Positions 3,056-43,860 are shown, numbered from the whole stretch's first letter. The stretch: DNA of 63,983 nucleotides, filler included, from Ionaspis alba (GCA_964255285.1; 3 parts of 3 records of this genome joined end to end with filler, not necessarily neighbours in it); one strand, 5' to 3'. Notes: generated by a model not told the origin, from the letters alone. A program made the numbers and translations.

Positions 3056-5475
3056 TCATTCGCCCATGGGCATATTCTCGACCTCCTCACTCAAAGCTCT
3101 CCAGTTGTCTGCCTGCAATTCTGCATATTTGACACGCTCCTGACTCCAGTCCTGATGAAGCTTGCTGACATGGTACTGTGATTGCTGGAAATAGAGCAGC
3201 TCGTCACGAATGCATTCTTTGATGAAGACACCACGGGCATGTTGGGCAACAATAGATTGTTTGTCCTGACGATAGGTCAATATAGCACCCACAGATAGAA
3301 GTGCAGAAAATCAAGACTCACATTCATGATCGCTTGCTCGAGCTTTTCGATCTCGCCAGGCTTTACGAGACCCTCTGGCTTTGCACGCACAGCAATCAAC
3401 TTTGTCTCGTTACTCTCGATTCGGCGCTCCAATTGTGGGATGTTATCTTTGGCATAGCGATCTCTCCGATCAAACATGTCTCGCACACCAACCAATGAGT
3501 CGCGCTGTCTCTTGAAATCCTCTAACACGCCCTCATCCCATGCGTGAGCCTCGTCTTCAAGGAGGCTGCGACTCGTTTCGAAATGCTTTGCTGTCGATTT
3601 GATCCCTTCGTTCAAGAGAGGGACATCGTTCGTGTCAGCAGCATAAGTGGATTCGGATTCTTCGGTAAGGGATTTGAGAGTCGTGGCGAAGCGCGTGTAA
3701 TCTGCGGCTACACCTTGATTACGTTTGGAGAGTCGCTCAAGGAGGTTGCAAAGACCGATATAGGTCTCAGCTGATTTCCTGACGCCCGAGCGAACTGTAT
3801 CGAAGGTATCCATAAGGTTCGTGGGAAGAGAGTCTTCAAGACCTGGTGGAAGAGCCTTTCCCGTGAACTCCTCTTGTACAGATATCGTAGCTTGCTTTCG
3901 CCATACGGCGAGTTCCTGGAAAGACTCGTCAGACGCTTTATATTTACTCTAGAAGTGATACTCACTGTAGGAACAGTCAAGAACATCACAACGAGCTGCT
4001 CCTGGCTCAAGACGGGATGTCTGACCAAGGCATTTGTGAATCTGACCAGTCCCCGCCTTCTCTTCTCAACGAAGGTCGTGTCCGAGGACAAGTGGCGCCC
4101 ATTGACTGCTCCACGGCATCATTAGCTTTCGAATAGGTGATGTGGTAAGAAGGCTCACCTGCGACCCTCTTCGGAGGCAATAGCGGCAACTGTCTGAAAG
4201 GATATCTCTTATACAAGCAGTCTAGTAACCAAACGAAATCGCTATATCGTCGGACCACCGTGCTGCCTCTCCGTGCACTCTTGACCTCATAATTGCGATG
4301 CTGAAACATGAACATTCCCTCCTTCTCTGGAAGCAGTGTAATTGTAACCGTTTCCTCCACTCCACGGCTAGTCGTCCTTCCTCCACCGAGAGACCTTGTG
4401 TTTCGCCCAGTAGGATTGCTTGAATCATCTCCGCCCGATCCAAATCCTGAACCACCCAATCCAGCCTGATCTCCATTGGGGTAGTCGGTGCCAGACGTGT
4501 CGTAGGTTCCCCATCCGCCACCAGCTGCAGTAGATGTGGATTCCGTGGGTTGAGATTCCCCGGGAAGATCTGCAGCGGTGGATTCTGGAGCTTCGGAATG
4601 CGTGGTAAAAGCACTTGTTGTCCGGGAGGCCGCCAACTGACCATTCGAGATTGGCCGGGCCGCTGTGACACCATTTGTCTTCCTTCCAGCGTCATTATTG
4701 ACAGCTTGAGTTTGTGCCTTCTGGATAGCTGGGCTAGCCCATGGGTCAGATTCTAAATCTGCAAGCGAATCTTTACGGAGTCGCCGAGACTTTGAGGGCG
4801 TTTCGGCAGGCTTGGGGTCCTTGAGGGGAGGGCTCGGTCTTCGCTGCGGAGGAGTCCTATCGTCGAAGGAGTCTGACGCTTTCGCATTCTTCAGCTTCTG
4901 TAGATACGGTATCGACGGTTCCGGCAGATCTACGGTATCGTCAGATATCTGGAACTGCCCGAAACAACTAGGTGCGCTTTACTTTTGCGTCTCTCGTCGA
5001 CACCATCCAGTGTAGCTTCTTCACCTTCCTGAGATAAGGCTAACAACGCAAGCAAGACATTAAATTCACTCCGGCTCAGTCCATTGGCAATCCCGTTTGG
5101 CGTGACGAGTTTCAGCAGTCTCTCTTGTTCGCTTTCACTTATCTTGCTGCTTGCCAGCAGCTTTTTTACTCCCTCAAGGCTAACTCCTGAGCCTGACCGA
5201 TCCCCTGAGTCAAGTATGGTATCAAATGTATCGATATAGCTTTCGGGAACATCGGACGCAGGGAGAAGGTTTTTGATGAGGTCGCCCCGCGCAGCTTTCT
5301 TGGGTGTAGGCAAGCCCCAAGGCGAAGCATTGCCATTTTCCGCGTCATCTGCAAAGAGAGAAGCGTTTGCTGTAGATCCAGGAGTAGGCTCGTCGTCGAA
5401 AAGAGACTTGGACTGTGGATGAGCTGGAGGGTTTGCTGGACTTGAGTCGTCTGGGGAACTTCCGAAAAGGGACAT
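3056..5475 (-). CDS. MVP1: Sorting nexin Mvp1/SNX8 (EH-like N-terminus, PX and BAR domains), multi-exon
   Basis: Starts MSLFGSSPDD. PX motif EKEGMFMFQHRNYEV...RRYSDFVWLLDCLYKRYPFRQLPLLPPKR. C-terminus LHQDWSQERVKYAELQADNWRALSEEVENMP. Confidence 0.93.
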
Positions 5476-5845
5476 TCTATCGCTCTGGAGTGTGGGAATA
5501 GGTCAATGTACAGTATAGAACTCAACCGCTTCACGAATCCTTCTGCAGAATTAGAAGGCTGTTGCTTGATAGACCACGCATGGACTAAGACTCCAACAAC
5601 AAGTTCTAGCTCTCTGCACTTGCCTCATCCAACCTTCAGCCACAAATTGCCGCCGAAACTATTATCCGCGAATGCTGCCTTGTCGAAGGTAATTTACCCT
5701 CATGTAGATCCGATTTGCGAAACCCTAACCTGCCAGCATCTCATCCAACCATACAAGACGGAGCCGCCTTCTTCCAAGCTGGAACTGACCTTTTGGTCTT
5801 CCTCCTCTTTTAATGTAGCTACAATTCAAGACTACAACCAGCAAT

Positions 5846-8800
5846 ATGCCTCCGGCATACACCCAAGCACAACGAAGTGCTATTGCTCAGTTTGTGAACT
5901 TCACCTCAGTCAAAGAAAGCGTTGCAGCCAAGGTGAGCGGCCAAAAGTTTCCCTTCCAATCAGCAATCACTCCCTTGATGATTCCTGCCATATGGTGTAG
6001 ATCAAACATCTAATTTGGCAAGAGCAATCACTGATGTTAGCGCATCTAGCAACTGAAGGCCTCTGGTTGGAATGTTGAACAAGCCGTAGACACGTATGTA
6101 CAGAACGATTTCTTAATTTTGAATACTTATGTGCATTTCTCTCATATTGTCACTCGTGTATCTTTTTCCATTCTCGAAGGTCAAGCACATTTTACTCTGT
6201 CTGGCTCGGACTGCGAAGACTTTTGTGACACCAGCTTTGCCCTTATGCGTTTGCTGCAAAGTCTACTATGGATAACCCTCATGTGGCGGATTCAAATCAT
6301 GGGACAATTTCAACGCAGCGAACCTCGCCCCCAAGGCTACGCAAAACGTCAGACTTGCCTGCTACAACCCCGATATCTCGTTGGATCCAACGCAACGATC
6401 GGCTTCGGAGGAGGTGGCCCGACACTATATACGATATTGTAGAAACAAGACGTTACAATGCTAGCGCTCGGCTTGAACGCTTTATCTATGAGGGTATGAA
6501 GAACGCAGATGGAGTGAAGATGCAAGATGCCAACGACGAAGAAATTGATCAAAGCCTGCTGATATCTGGGCCCACTGCCAAATTACACTCCTCGCTCTCG
6601 CGCTGCTCTTCTCGGTTAGATGTCAGAGATTTATTTGAGGACTCGATAGCAGATCAACTTTGCCTCGAGCAAGAACGTCGATGTCGTANNNNNNNNNNNN
6701 NNNNNNNNNNNNNNNNNNNNNNNNNNNNNNNNNNNNNNNNNNNNNNNNNNNNNNNNNNNNNNNNNNNNNNNNNNNNNNNNNNNNNNNNTTTGAGGACTCG
6801 ATAGCAGATCAACTTTGCCTCGAGCAAGAACGTCGATGTCGTAGGCGGCAGCGCTCCTTGACTGAGCGGTTTCATCGACAACTTCAGAATTCTTTCTTAT
6901 ACTGGATTGAAGCAGCGAGGAGTGGCAAATACTGGATACAGTTACAGCATCTACCTCAACTCTTCAGGTTCGTCTTGCGACGCCCTCTTATGCCTGAGTT
7001 GGAATTCCGCAACTTTCTCCGAAACATCGGAGATGATTCGGAATTCGATTATGATAGGAACCCTTTCAACAACGTGGAAAGGAAACCATCAGTTGCCCTG
7101 TACGCTTCGTACTATGAGACGACTGGTAGTCATGTCAGTTCCTGTATGGACTTACTACCAAAGGGCTATGGCGTAAAACACTCCAGTTGTCTCGAAAGTC
7201 CCATTGAAGGAGGAACTGCGATTATTCATGATGAATCTCCGTGTCTGTCGCGACGAAAGCTCTGTTCCTCGAGAGTTGCAAGGATCGAAGCTGCACCTTC
7301 TGCCTCGCAGGTGCAAGACCGTGAACTCGAAAAAAATGATGAGCACCTCCAAGAGGTAATCGAAGACCTTTCCAACGCAATCACACTATTTCGGAATGGG
7401 ACATACAGCATCCAGCAGACTGTGGAAGCGCTTCTGGACTGCACTGTTGGCCTCGTGATAGATCTTGACAGCTGCCTAATGCATATCAAAGACCTAAATA
7501 CTGATCCTCGCAATGCGGCTATCGCTATAGTTGACGAAACATTCTCTAACCAGCCTTCACCCAATGGCTCAGAGAACAATGAGGATGAAGAAAACACTTC
7601 GCAGTATCAACCTGCAGATGAGACTAAACCGTCGTCACATAAGCCCAAACTTTCGATCAAGTATGACATCGCTTCCGGGTTAATGTCGATCTATCTTGAT
7701 TTCCTCGAAGGCCTTACGAATGTTCGAGATGTTCCTGAAAAGTTTCGTTCTGCTCTTGACAAACCCGACATGCCTGATTGGGAACTGTCTTCTATCCTTG
7801 CTGAGCATGACATTCCACCAGAGTTGTTCTTTACCGAAGCTATGATGAAAGTGCCCGCGACCTCACTCTCAACATCAAAGCTACGTTCCACGGAATGTAA
7901 CGCTGCTACGCGACAGGTCCATGACCCGCTAAGAGAGTCCTCGAAGTCAACCTCAGGGCCAGGCAAGCGCGAGATTCTCATCGAAAACACTCCGCCTAGC
8001 ACGATCCAAGAGGAAGGAGAAGCAGAAACTCCTGCATCGTTTGAATATGATCCTACTATAGTGCCACAAATTTCAGGTCCGTCATGCAAACATCCATCAA
8101 TATCAATGGCCTTGGGAACAAGCGCTTCGATCTCGACAACCGGCTCAGGTCGGGGGACTCTTCCAACTACTGGCGATACGAGTCCAACCACCGACCCAAT
8201 GCCACGTTCCACAGAGGTTCAGCACATTTCTAATAGCACTCCTCCAAAATTCATAGTCAGTCCAATCACTAGAAAGAAGATATACCGCGAGGATTATTGG
8301 CCCAAAATCGGCACTGCAGGTTATCCAACCGTAGATCAGGTTGTCATTGATAATCGTTCAATCTCACCAGAAGATGGCGTGACAGAAGCGTTGTGGGGCT
8401 TGCCGATGCCGACTCGTCTCGCAAGAGAGTGGTGCCAAGAACACAATCTGCCGACATCGTTCATCCAAGACGGAGTGAAATCAACCACTCCCCAACGCCG
8501 AAAAGAGAAGAAGGCAAGCAAGCTTAGGAATACTGTCTGCCTTGTTCCGCCTGAAACGCGTGAGAAGCGCCGGTTGTCATTGTCTTCAGCGGGTAGTCGT
8601 GAACACAAACACACGAAATACCACAGCGAACTGGCTATCTTTGCCGAAAAAGGTGAGACCCAGGAGTCCTTTGTGGCCCGCTGTTTTGACGAGCGGATCC
8701 TTCATGAAACAAAGGCTGCAGCCAAACTCGGACTCAAGCAATCTCGGAATCGGTGCTGGGGATGCGGGCATTCTAGTTGCAGATGTCGTGATGATTACCT

Positions 8801-11289
8801 CGATCGAAGCTCCACAGACAAAAGTCATCGGCACATAGAACATAATAATAGAAGAAATTCGGTACCAGCACGCCTTTCAACGCCAAGTCGCTCACGACGT
8901 GTCTCTTCGGTGGTGAGCGCTTTCGGTGACGATAGAGAGTCTCTCCAATCGCTCAATCAGCTCGCCGATGCCAAATTAGAAGCTGATATCAAGCGTGCCA
9001 AGAGCGAGCCCTTAACTTCTAACAAAGAGAGGCTGCCTGCCCTCGAAAAGTGGAAGACTGATCCAAGGCGAAAAGAAACCACCTGCAATACTCCTCCGTT
9101 AGCATCGTCGGACACTGGACATGAAGCAGGCACTTTGGTCGAGCATATCGAGAATGTACAACCAGACTTCGAAAACCGGGAAAATTATCGCCTGACTGAT
9201 ACCCTTCTACAGACTGTCCCGGATAGCAGGGCGGATGATCAGGTAGCGAGACCCTCATCTCTTCTTGTTGACGGTTCGGGCTTTTCCGAAGAGACGAAGA
9301 CTGTGGATAGATGCCCAGGAACCGCGACTCCAGTCATTTCGGGCTCTGCGTCTACATTCGAGTCCTCGACAGCGGTCTCTCCGCGCGTAAATACCCTTCC
9401 CGGAGCTTCTGATCTGCAGCTCACTTTCGTAGACAAAAATGCTCATACTGGCTCTGCTCTATTCGAGGCAACGGTCAAAAGTCCCGGAACAAGATATGTA
9501 CTTGGAGGCGGCTCTGACTCTGTTACCAATGAACCGGGCGACGGTCATATTCTGCCGAGCAATATCGCTAAGCAATCAAAAGCTGCTCCGCATTCAACGG
9601 CCCACAAAAAGCATCCATCTATGTCAACAGCTCTCGGGACCCTGAGTTTAGAGCCCGCAGAGTCATCTTCTTCTGAAGGAAAGGAAATGCAGATTGCTAC
9701 TAGCAACGCTCAATCATCAGAATCTGACGGTTTCAAGAACGCTACCGCGCAAAACGCCGGTATTAGCGTTCCTGAAGATGCAGCTGTTCGGCAGGTTGAT
9801 GTGAATCTTAATCCATTTTTGCCACCAACACCACGACCAGCAAATATATCATTGCCACAATCGCCACGTCCTGAAAAGCAGACACTGCCGCCAACACCAC
9901 GTCCTGCAAACGTGTCACTCCCCCCGCCTTCGCGGCCGCGGCCGCGGCCGCGGAACAAGGTTCTCCCCTCCAGTCTGAAAGTTGCTACATCGCCATTGCC
10001 TCCATCTAACGATAGACGGGGCCCACGAATGAAGACCACAAGACAGCAAGTGTCCTCGGATCTCGCTCCACAAGCTCCCTGTCTCGACCATATGGATTGG
10101 GATCAGACATACGAGGATCTTGAAGGGGAGGGAGAAGATTGTCCGGAGTTAGATTCGTCAAGCGATTCTCCGCTAAGCCCTCCTCCACTTCCCTTATTCA
10201 AGCCTACGCCACGTCCAATCATGTCGGTGGCAGAGCAATTGGCTTCCATTGATGCAAACGTGAAAGCAATAGAGAAAAAGGCCAGAATAGCTCGCGTTCG
10301 CGCCAAAAAAGCCGCCAAAGAGAAGAGCGGGATGAAGGATATGACTGCCAAGGAGCCAGTGGAGAAGAGGGATACCAAAGACCGATATACTGGGAAGGAA
10401 AAGGCCGATGGTCGTCCTCCAAGGACTAAGGCGAACCGAACTTCACCTCTTGAGCATTTATCTGATTCTGTCTTTTTGCCCTTAAGCTACTATTGTGATC
10501 AGAGTGATACATCATTTAGCAAGACTGACGAACGACGTGGCAATAGTTACTTTCAAAGCACAGTCCCTGCAGCCGGTAAATCTGGGTCGAATTCCACTCT
10601 CAACAAGCTATTCGACAAATATCGAGGTATGCTCCGATCCTCCCATAGCTCTCCAGGAACTAATTGCCTCGAAATCCAAAGACGACCCCTCCAATAATCC
10701 CGATGTAATCGGTACCACGGGAACAATGAAATACCTCATGGACCTTGGCGTCCAACTCGACGAACCAGCCACCTTCGCCATCCACACCGAGCTTTCAGCT
10801 TCCACCGTGGGCGAGCTTTCCCGTGAAGGATTCATCTCCGGTTGGAAGGCACTGTCCGCAGAAAACATTTCGAAGCAGCAAGCCGCCGTGGCCAACATTC
10901 GATCATCACTTACGACCTCCCAAGAATACTTTCAGCGTGTCTACAAATATACCTTCCTCCTTGCACGGACGCCTGGTCAGAAAAACGTTGCTCTCGATGC
11001 AGCAACGGAATACTGGCGGTTACTGTTCGGTCCCGGTGGCAATCCATGGGCTACTGCGACTACGAACTGGTTGACTCTTTGGATTGACTTCTTGCTGTCG
11101 AGCTGGAAAAAAAGTGTGGGTAAGGACATGTGGGATCAAACAGGAGTTTTTGCCAAGAAGTGTCTGGAGGATGAGTCCATGAGCTGGTGGAGCGAGGATG
11201 GTGCGTGGCCTGGGGTCTTGGACGACTTTGTGGCGTATGTGAGAGAGAAACGGCATGAGGACGGTGGTGCGGAGGCTATGGTATTATGA
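5846..11289 (+). CDS. DCN1: DCN1 (defective in cullin neddylation 1; UBA-like plus PONY domains); exons 5846-5932, 6050-6093, 10547-10626, 10682-11289
   Basis: Exon 1 MPPAYTQAQRSAIAQFVNFTSVKESVAAK, exon 2 QLKASGWNVEQAVD(T) and exon 3 YFQS...LNKLFDKYR give the UBA-like N-terminus. Exon 4 has PONY motifs GELSREGFISGW, FQRVYKYTF, KDMWDQT and WSEDGAWPGVLDDFV. All junctions are GT..AG and phase-consistent. Confidence 0.9.
6268..10697 (+). CDS. ~1,424-aa low-complexity S/P/T-rich ORF nested in DCN1 intron 2 on the same strand and in frame with DCN1 exon 3; possible alternative first exon
   Basis: ORFs 6268-6804 and 6660-10697 become one frame when the 100-N gap and its 55-nt duplicated flank are collapsed. 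There is no stop codon over ~4.27 kb. Confidence 0.75.
9819..9955 (+). repeat. Coding tandem repeats in the nested ORF: 2x LPPTPRPAN(I/V)SLP and a CGGCCG run encoding RPRPRPR
   Basis: Directly visible in the DNA and the translation. Confidence 0.7.
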
Positions 11290-12074
11290 GGCGATGATGT
11301 CCAAAGGCGATAACGATGAACTTCTGCTTGCATATGTCTGGCGTTCCTGGATTAGAAAGTTCGTGCATCTGGACTGCATAGTCACTTAGGGAGGTTGAAT
11401 GCCAATAGAGCTTTTGTTATTCTAAGTCCGGTCCGTCGATTCCTCGGGGCGAGGCCGCGTGGCGCGGGACTGCTTAGGGACATGACTTGCTAAGGGGTAC
11501 CCTTATCTTCACCCCGTGCTCCCCGGCTGGGGGCTCCCTCAGGGATTTTTTAGCTGCTAAATTGTGCCAATAATTAGGTAAGCTCGTCAACGATTTCTGC
11601 CCATGAGCCTTGGGGTTGGATCAGATAACCTTAAACGTGCCCGTGCAGTAAGAGTGCTCCCGAGGTTCCCTAGATTTTGTGCAAGTGTTGTGGAAGGGTT
11701 CAACGCTCAGCTTCAACTGTTCCTTGATGTTACTGATGAGNNNNNNNNNNNNNNNNNNNNNNNNNNNNNNNNNNNNNNNNNNNNNNNNNNNNNNNNNNNN
11801 NNNNNNNNNNNNNNNNNNNNNNNNNNNNNNNNNNNNNNNNTGTTGTGGAAGGGTTCAACGCTCAGCTTCAACTGTTCCTTGATGTTACTGATGAGTCAAA
11901 GCGATGGCTACCTTTGGTAGTCGATTTCGAAGACGAGGCTTTTACTTTTCACCACTACAGCATCACTCCTTGTTCTATGGCTGCAATTTCGCCCACAACT
12001 AGCTCCTCGAGATCCTAATTATGGCCGTCTCAAAATGGCTTCCTCCTCCTCCAAGTATGCCATTGTAACCTTCC

Positions 12075-21942: not shown

Positions 21943-22042
21943 NNNNNNNNNNNNNNNNNNNNNNNNNNNNNNNNNNNNNNNNNNNNTTAATTAATTAANN
22001 NNNNNNNNNNNNNNNNNNNNNNNNNNNNNNNNNNNNNNNNNN
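21943..22042. other. Artificial contig-join linker (44 N + TTAATTAATTAA + 44 N)
   Basis: A six-frame stop linker embedded in Ns. DBP7 is cut here and does not resume on the other side. Confidence 0.9.
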
Positions 22043-43760: not shown

Positions 43761-43860
43761 NNNNNNNNNNNNNNNNNNNNNNNNNNNNNNNNNNNNNNNN
43801 NNNNTTAATTAATTAANNNNNNNNNNNNNNNNNNNNNNNNNNNNNNNNNNNNNNNNNNNN
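43761..43860. other. Artificial contig-join linker (N + TTAATTAATTAA + N)
   Basis: Same linker as at 21943. The genes on both sides are truncated. Confidence 0.9.

Follow-up and report, generated by a model that had tools for sequence, protein, structure and literature searches.

A DCN1 gene of a lichen-type ascomycete whose second intron is a conserved reading frame, and its likely second PONY-domain product

The window analysed here is a 63,983-nucleotide (nt) stretch of DNA from Ionaspis alba (GCA_964255285.1), and its positions 5846 to 11289 hold a four-exon DCN1 gene in which the second intron contains a long open reading frame (ORF) that continues in frame into exon 3. Canonical Dcn1 is a co-E3 for cullin neddylation, and DCN1 governs where and when cullin-RING ligases switch on. 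The anatomy of this gene and the conservation of the ORF among its relatives suggest that the locus specifies, besides a conventional Dcn1, a second and much larger protein with the same cullin-binding PONY domain.

The DCN1 gene and the reading frame within its second intron

The features of the gene, in 5' to 3' order and with the two isoforms named as we predict them, are as follows.

5846..5932, plus strand: DCN1 exon 1, start of the UBA-like domain, reading MPPAYTQAQRSAIAQFVNFTSVKESVAAK; aligns with canonical DCN1 N-termini
5933..6049, plus strand: intron 1, 117 nt, GTGAGC...CTAG
6050..6093, plus strand: DCN1 exon 2, remainder of the UBA-like domain, reading QLKASGWNVEQAVD plus 2 nt; ends in phase 2, with AC before the donor
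6094..10546, plus strand: intron 2 of the short isoform, donor GTATGT at 6094, acceptor TAG; 4,453 nt with the assembly artefact counted, 4,298 nt in truth
6226..6228, plus strand: TGA stop in the frame of the long ORF, 14 codons 5' of its ATG; equivalent stops occur in the related loci L001 and L008
6268..10546, plus strand: putative coding sequence found only in the long isoform, of 1,374 codons once an assembly gap is collapsed; ATG with A at -3 and G at +4
6634..6788, no strand: scaffolding artefact made up of a 55-nt duplicate and 100 N, bridged from 6633 to 6789 by an X1 contig
10525..10529, plus strand: branch site CTGAC, equal to Thr-Asp (ACT GAC) in the frame of the predicted long isoform
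10544..10546, plus strand: 3' splice site TAG, whose AG forms positions 1-2 of a Ser codon, AGT (10545-10547), in the predicted long isoform
10547..10626, plus strand: exon 3, common to both predicted isoforms, (T)YFQSTVPAAGKSGSNSTLNKLFDKYR
10627..10681, plus strand: intron 3, 55 nt, phase 1, GTATGC...AAG, with normal splice signals
10682..11289, plus strand: exon 4, the PONY (Cullin_binding) domain and the stop codon

Joining all four exons gives a short model of 272 amino acids (aa) with the junction ...AVDT-YFQS..., which is 42-63% identical to 10 canonical DCN1 proteins and aligns with them gap-free at that junction. All 10 are listed with PF14555 and seven also with PF22566; the comparison is one of alignment, with no Pfam scan of the joined model itself, and exon 1 by itself yields in Pfam just a UBA_4 match with an expect value (E) of 0.02, under the cut-off. 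Exon 4 contains a complete PF03556 domain (E 4.7e-33; 114.5 bits, cut-off 27.9; profile positions 1-118 of 118), and its residues 6-188 match the solved structures of human DCN2 (4gao, E 8e-23), human DCN1 (3tdu, E 7e-22) and yeast Dcn1 (3o2p, 2is9 and 3bq3, E ~3e-20 to 7e-20). The KD.W, GAWP and DDFV stretches of exon 4, which we take to be positions of the cullin-binding "DAD patch", are identical to human DCN1/2 in the alignment. The UBA plus PONY architecture of the Dcn1/DCNL1-2 subtype is found in the short model only, the predicted long isoform having no UBA.

A preliminary description of this DNA, made from the sequence alone, had placed the exons, the GTATGT donor at 6094, the CTGAC at 10525, the TAG acceptor and the phases exactly where a check of the sequence finds them, and the phase-2 splice that it proposed between exons 2 and 3 is the one that aligns gap-free with canonical DCN1. 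Its estimate of ~4.3 kilobases (kb) for intron 2 likewise agrees with the 4,298 nt left once the artefact is removed; the other two introns of the gene, the only ones sized here, measure 117 and 55 nt.

The same description reported an uninterrupted ORF of ~1,420 codons within intron 2, which does not hold for the sequence as assembled. A run of 100 N (6689-6788) is flanked by an exact 55-nt duplicate (6634-6688 is identical to 6789-6843), and together they shift the frame and split the ORF in two. However, runs X1 and X2, which come from one study and consist of DNA-like contigs, include a 544-nt X1 contig (depth 95) that joins 6633 straight to 6789, indicating that the 155 nt at 6634-6788 are a scaffolding artefact. 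Once these are collapsed, the frame from ATG 6268 to the acceptor has zero stops, compared with 45 and 96 in the other two frames; the probability that it would stay open by chance is ~4e-29, and the second-longest stop-free stretch of the window measures 939 codons. In each of the four quarters of the ORF, codon usage gives a log-likelihood that is positive in frame, and off-frame the value is negative. The ORF reads from ATG 6268 across the acceptor into exon 3, as first described, and a model spliced at intron 3 alone comes to 1,603 aa, close to the ~1,600 aa originally estimated.

Minor variant contigs of run X1 cover 5759-7361 at depths of 30-68, against a total of 86-157, diverge by ~6% in short segments, and may reflect the presence in the sample of another haplotype or of a closely related strain. 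Two variable segments hold their 7 synonymous and 17 non-synonymous changes, and in one variant a +1 insertion after 7061 is offset 6 nt further on, where 1 nt is missing at 7067, and no stop results. Further along the ORF, the main X1 contigs end at 8186 and restart at 8227, with 38 other letters standing at 8207 (depth 42); this break at 8187-8226 could be a local variant or an assembly bubble.

A protein family that runs into exon 3

An initial search with the ORF returned five relatives of 1,189-1,580 aa, one of them an NCBI gene model of Umbilicaria vellea with PF03556; all five end in ...(Y/F)FQ...LNKLFDKYR, which is exon 3 of DCN1. To avoid circularity, we built profile A2 from the conserved core only, stopping well short of the C-terminus, and searched it against 1.84 billion representative proteins (50% clustering level). 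It matched 105 proteins at E<=1e-3 and 61 at E<=1e-30, and scored the window's own ORF at 650 bits; alignment A1 as query found only 2 proteins, probably owing to low-complexity words that swamped the candidates. The A2 matches, the first five relatives and P0011 together make 109 members besides the window's own ORF. The exon-3 motif, ..(Y/F)FQ..LNKLFDKYR, is reached by 67 of these, including 65 of the 74 that are at least 700 aa long, so that the profile search answers in the affirmative the earlier question whether the intron-2 ORF is conserved in frame with exon 3. In the two closest relatives, P0006 and P0127 (42-44% core identity), the ORF is intact.

In 62 of 66 unspliced members, ..KYR is followed by Gly, as expected from read-through of the GT of the next intron, and the position of intron 3 is therefore conserved as well. 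PF03556 itself is present at the C-terminal end of P0129, P0153, P0185 and P0008. Dozens of lineages, at identities of 20-45%, keep open a frame of 900-1,900 codons with conserved blocks, all four of which are present in the window: W..LP..FRFALRRPLMPE; SPE.G..LWGLPMPT..AR; FA..GE; and C..C...C.C. We provisionally describe the range of the family as lichen-type ascomycetes on the basis of one named member (P0008, from Umbilicaria vellea) and the named PONY relatives.

Scanning metagenome contigs with A2 revealed 17 loci. L001 and L005-L013, the latter comprising seven haplotypes of one species, share the full DCN1 and long-ORF architecture. In L001 and L008, UBA exon 1 and a short intron precede UBA exon 2, which ends GC/GTACGT in phase 2 (the slash marks the splice site); an in-frame stop and the ATG come next, then the long ORF up to the acceptor, and finally exon 3 with the PONY domain. 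The distance from donor to ATG is 188-235 nt in the related loci, compared with 174 nt in the window. The window, L001 and L008 thus agree in their UBA exons, in the phase-2 donor and in an acceptor of matching phase. L001 has no intron after KYR, and its long ORF extends without a break over ~65 residues at the start of the PONY region. At 13928-14233 of L001 the ORF breaks off right after ..GW, and the ORF of P0146 diverges at the same point, which suggests a different intron there.

Among the seven haplotypes, the sole indel inside the ORF is 3 nt long. In contrast, the DCN1 copies at L002-4 and L014-17 are degenerate second copies: the long ORF changes frame three or four times, a stop in EK*NKGVSKDMW interrupts the PONY region, which does not extend to the C-terminal WWSEDGAWP. 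From their sequences, these loci appear to be whole-locus pseudogenes, and they would illustrate how rapidly the frame decays without selection. The metagenome series with the intact L005-L013 locus also carry a degenerate whole-locus DCN1 copy, which is either a pseudogene paralogue or that of a second fungus.

The frame of the family also preserves the signals by which intron 2 would be removed. The residue directly before the (Y/F/H)(F/Y/L) pair at the junction is Arg in 47 and Ser in 19 of the 66 scored members (four of the 66 rows had been mis-anchored by the regular expression and were read by eye). Arg and Ser are chemically unlike, and both are encoded by AGN, which holds the AG of the 3' splice site. 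Six to eight residues upstream of the junction, [SPTA][ND] occurs in 65 of the 66 members (66 by eye), compared with 26% of background windows, as AN (45), AD (15), TN (3) or SN (2); this dipeptide is the translation of NCT-RAY, a CTRAY branch site in frame. At the DNA level, the junction reads ACTGAC...AATAG/T in the window (then TAC TTT CAA), GCTGAC...GCTAG/A in L001 and GCTGAT...GACAG/G in L008. Because branch site, AG and phase all sit in the conserved frame, the segment is conserved both as an intron and as a coding exon, suggesting, as far as sequence can tell, that the branch site and 3' splice AG are under double constraint, from splicing and from coding. The locus is an unusually clean natural case of splice signals doubling as codons, in which an Arg/Ser-only position and an Ala/Thr-Asn/Asp dipeptide expose the double constraint in protein alignments alone.

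The predicted N-terminal region of the long protein contains the following features.

6858..7037, plus strand: N-terminal helical module, conserved in alignments, including FRFVLRRPLMPE (6963-6998); predicted local distance difference test (pLDDT) ~90
7302..7562, plus strand: helical module 2, pLDDT 91-98
7665..7862, plus strand: helical module 3, pLDDT 94-97
8355..8537, plus strand: most conserved block, SPEDGVTEALWGLPMPT..ARE..NLP...S.TP.RR, with invariant columns; pLDDT 85-97
8640..8786, plus strand: FAxxGE helix, then the Cys motif CWGCGHSSCRC (8754-8786), from alignment and AlphaFold2
9822..9905, plus strand: three P(P/Q)(T/S)PRP repeats within proline-rich sequence; relatives have similar motifs

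An AlphaFold2 run with 59 relatives, giving a 652-residue model, predicts five confident helical modules (the first four in the list above and 8640-8732), and ~40% of the intervening residues are of low confidence. The "huge disordered region" of the preliminary description is therefore only partly apt: disordered linkers are present, but they separate five modules predicted to fold. The most conserved block is also predicted to fold when modelled alone (156 residues, core pLDDT 91-97). Conservation is poor over the ~35 residues that follow ATG 6268. Pfam searches of the region matched no family in P0001 and gave only sub-threshold chance matches in P0002, and over 30 relatives they found nothing besides PF03556 and UBA_4; NCBIfam matched none of six, and a sequence profile search of the PDB had no match at E<=1. 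For the 652-residue model, Foldseek against the PDB had no match at E<=1e-3 (best 1.3), and VIA-align found helical bundles only (best Z 6.2). The idea that the most conserved block might be a SAP/HeH-like helix-loop-helix was unsupported by fold searches with the 156-residue model (best Z 3.1, best Foldseek E 9.4).

Two products from one gene, and the alternatives

These data suggest that the DCN1 gene of this lichen-type ascomycete most likely has two protein products with exon 3 and the PONY domain in common, a reading to which we assign a probability of roughly 0.7. The short isoform, of 272 aa, would be expressed from a promoter upstream of 5846, with exons 1 and 2 spliced over the 4.3-kb intron to exon 3. 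The long isoform, of ~1,603 aa, would come from a transcript that begins downstream of the exon-2 donor, leaving the acceptor at 10546 without a partner donor; intron 2 would stay exonic in this transcript and only the 55-nt intron 3 would be removed. Translation would begin at ATG 6268, read across the internal branch site and AG, and continue through exon 3 to the PONY domain, such that the UBA would be replaced by ~1,370 residues comprising five helical modules, a Cys4 motif, proline-rich repeats and disordered linkers. By analogy with the metazoan DCNL paralogues, the long N-terminus would target or regulate NEDD8 co-E3 activity, and it is probably a targeting or regulatory region set on a constant PONY module. 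The earlier proposal that one locus makes two neddylation E3s through alternative promoters or first exons is supported by comparative evidence as regards two PONY proteins; as regards promoters, we infer it.

Evidence for the short mRNA comes from a comparison set of 114 PONY relatives. Six proteins of 255-277 aa with both UBA and PONY (P0013, P0018, P0027, P0039, P0040 and P0053) lie on contigs of 998-1,295 nt, and the small size of these contigs indicates that they are intron-less and cDNA-like. One of them, P0040, and P0184, a member of the long-ORF family, have an identical 24-aa exon-3 peptide, and hence a fungus with the long ORF also yields the spliced short mRNA. The model junction peptides are ...GNSYFQSTVPAAGK for the predicted long product and ...AVDTYFQSTVPAAGK for the short one.

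Several properties of the region upstream of the long ORF point to a separate start. The frame of the UBA exons differs from that of the ORF, and at all three loci with DNA a stop in the ORF frame separates the donor from the ATG. These three ATGs each have A at -3 and G at +4, and homologous starts recur across the family, M(S)LTAEEQW in 10 clusters and M.(E/G)DEV.R in 3. No ORF call begins with UBA sequence, apart from two automatic gene models. These features favour a transcription start downstream of the exon-2 donor for the putative long form.

A number of observations weigh against this reading. Another ATG, out of frame, stands at 6245, 23 nt 5' of ATG 6268, and its interference would be avoided only if transcription began past it or scanning were leaky; the long-form transcription start in this organism is one that we infer from the anatomy of the ORF. 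GC content at third codon positions is 0.46 in the long ORF, below that of the other long ORFs of the window. Short-term constraint appears weak: the ratio of non-synonymous to synonymous polymorphism (pN/pS) among L005-L013 is 0.65 (42 synonymous, 89 non-synonymous), and the X1 minor variants, with the counts given above, show no visible purifying selection. Nine of the 74 long family members stop short of the exon-3 motif, these being truncated ORFs or the three weakest matches. Finally, none of the libraries searched offers a function for the N-terminal region.

Among the alternatives, the one that survives best, though we consider it unlikely, is that a single promoter serves two acceptors, with exon 2 spliced either to a proximal acceptor, yielding a giant protein of UBA, long region and PONY, or to the distal one at 10546, yielding the short form. 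Two automatic models do join UBA to the long ORF (P0008, which is Umbilicaria vellea LQ347_002647, and P0185), phase-compatible AG sites exist within the first 70-400 nt of the ORF (for example, for an exon starting at 6336), and conservation is poor just after ATG 6268, over ~35 residues. The two joins, however, are different and non-homologous, and both cut the UBA fold, P0008 after AWNA and P0185 after exon 1. The candidate proximal acceptors are mostly RAG, look chance-like, and include none common to the window, L001 and L008. Initiator Met residues at homologous positions in 13 clusters and the in-frame stops 5' of the ATG at the three loci also argue against a long form that carries the UBA and for translation of the long form from its own start.

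Considerably less probable is that the ORF is a nested, independent gene, whose transcript would keep intron 3 and whose protein would finish at the stop at 10695-10697 without being joined to PONY. In most relatives the unspliced ORF does stop 1-37 residues past exon 3. Yet a nested gene would be free to end before the acceptor, and not one of the 67 members extending this far does so; intron 3 has normal signals at a position kept in 62 of 66 members; and the ORF of L001 enters the PONY region with no intron at all. For these reasons, the nested gene offered as an alternative in the preliminary description is disfavoured. Least probable of all is that short DCN1 alone is functional and the ORF an untranslated relic or a chance-open frame, for despite a pN/pS of 0.65 and the excess of non-synonymous changes in the X1 variants, long frames have been kept open in dozens of lineages at 20-45% identity (chance 4e-29 for the window), the only ORF indel among seven haplotypes is 3 nt, and truly degenerate copies are frameshifted.

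With a little less confidence than for the two products of this gene, we consider it probable that DCN1 is a two-product gene in lichen-type ascomycetes generally, in which a 3-6-kb segment serves as either intron or exon, with splice signals doubly constrained (~100 clusters), and a scaffold of ~1,300-1,900 residues, with five helical modules, a Cys4 motif and proline-rich repeats of phospho type, replaces the UBA and would direct PONY-dependent neddylation to a specific place or partner.

Relation to known systems and neighbouring sequence

The short model has the same UBA-like plus PONY architecture as canonical Dcn1 and DCUN1D1-2 of yeast and human. Unlike canonical Dcn1, the short form here needs removal of a 4.3-kb intron that is conserved coding sequence in frame with the next exon. 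In animals, specificity is given by five DCNL paralogues with different N-termini; DCNL3, DCNL4 and DCNL5 combine a constant PONY domain with varied N-termini that carry a membrane anchor or a nuclear signal. The arrangement proposed here is similar in that one cullin- and UBC12-binding PONY module is paired with alternative N-terminal regions, but these would come from a single gene, and one of them would be an N-terminus of ~1,370 residues with its own modules and no known domain. If this is true, the long product represents a previously undescribed class of NEDD8 co-E3 and contributes a new candidate targeting module for neddylation, and a fungal lineage would have found an independent solution to neddylation specificity by drawing a second, very large N-terminus from one gene.

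The proposed start also resembles those of the TA and deltaN forms of p63 and p73, in which an alternative start within an intron gives isoforms that differ at the N-terminus. In both cases a downstream start would swap the N-terminal domain and keep the remainder. In DCN1, unlike p63/p73, the alternative first exon would have no donor of its own and be continuous with the shared exon, and the branch site and AG would encode residues as well.

The closest annotated counterpart is Umbilicaria vellea LQ347_002647 (P0008; 1,580 aa, "hypothetical protein, partial"), in which a member of the same long-ORF family is fused to PF03556; the fused frame is thus already present in public annotation. It differs from our model in that a truncated UBA is joined to the long ORF, a join without support here. 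The literature that we searched, covered as listings and the beginnings of abstracts, contains no description of a long fungal DCN1 isoform or of LQ347_002647. Automatic annotations of the DCN1 locus in lichen fungi are inconsistent, comprising short, truncated and chimeric UBA-long-ORF forms, and a correct two-isoform model would mend them. The named DCN1 models P0017, P0019, P0021 and P0035 (Sarea resinae, Lecanora helva, Lobaria immixta and Letrouitia) are inconsistent at the junction between UBA and exon 3: some begin in what appears to be the tail of the long ORF (in Sarea, ...EEYANKTSGENS followed by FFQ...). Other named DCN1 models have extra residues between AVDA and the YFQ motif.

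Upstream of DCN1 lies a divergently oriented gene for a sorting nexin.

3280-5475, minus strand: sorting nexin of Mvp1/Snx8 type, with ORFs at 3280-3948 (Snx8_BAR_dom, E 1.5e-96) and 4010-4978 (PX, E 5.6e-8)
5476..5845, no strand: intergenic region between DCN1 and the divergent Mvp1/Snx8-type gene, the presumed promoter of the short isoform

The ORF at 4930-5475 on the minus strand starts at ATG 5475, and 370 nt separate its ATG from that of DCN1. The window contains an all-frame stop linker, TTAATTAATTAA with 44 N on either side, at 21943-22042 and again at 43761-43860, so that it consists of at least three contigs joined together, the first piece being 21,942 nt long. A second 100-N gap, at 11741-11840 just downstream of DCN1, is likewise flanked by a duplicate (...TGTTGTGGAAGGGTTCAACGCTCAGCTTCA... 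on both sides), and runs of 100 N in this scaffold appear to mark places where overlapping contigs were left unmerged.

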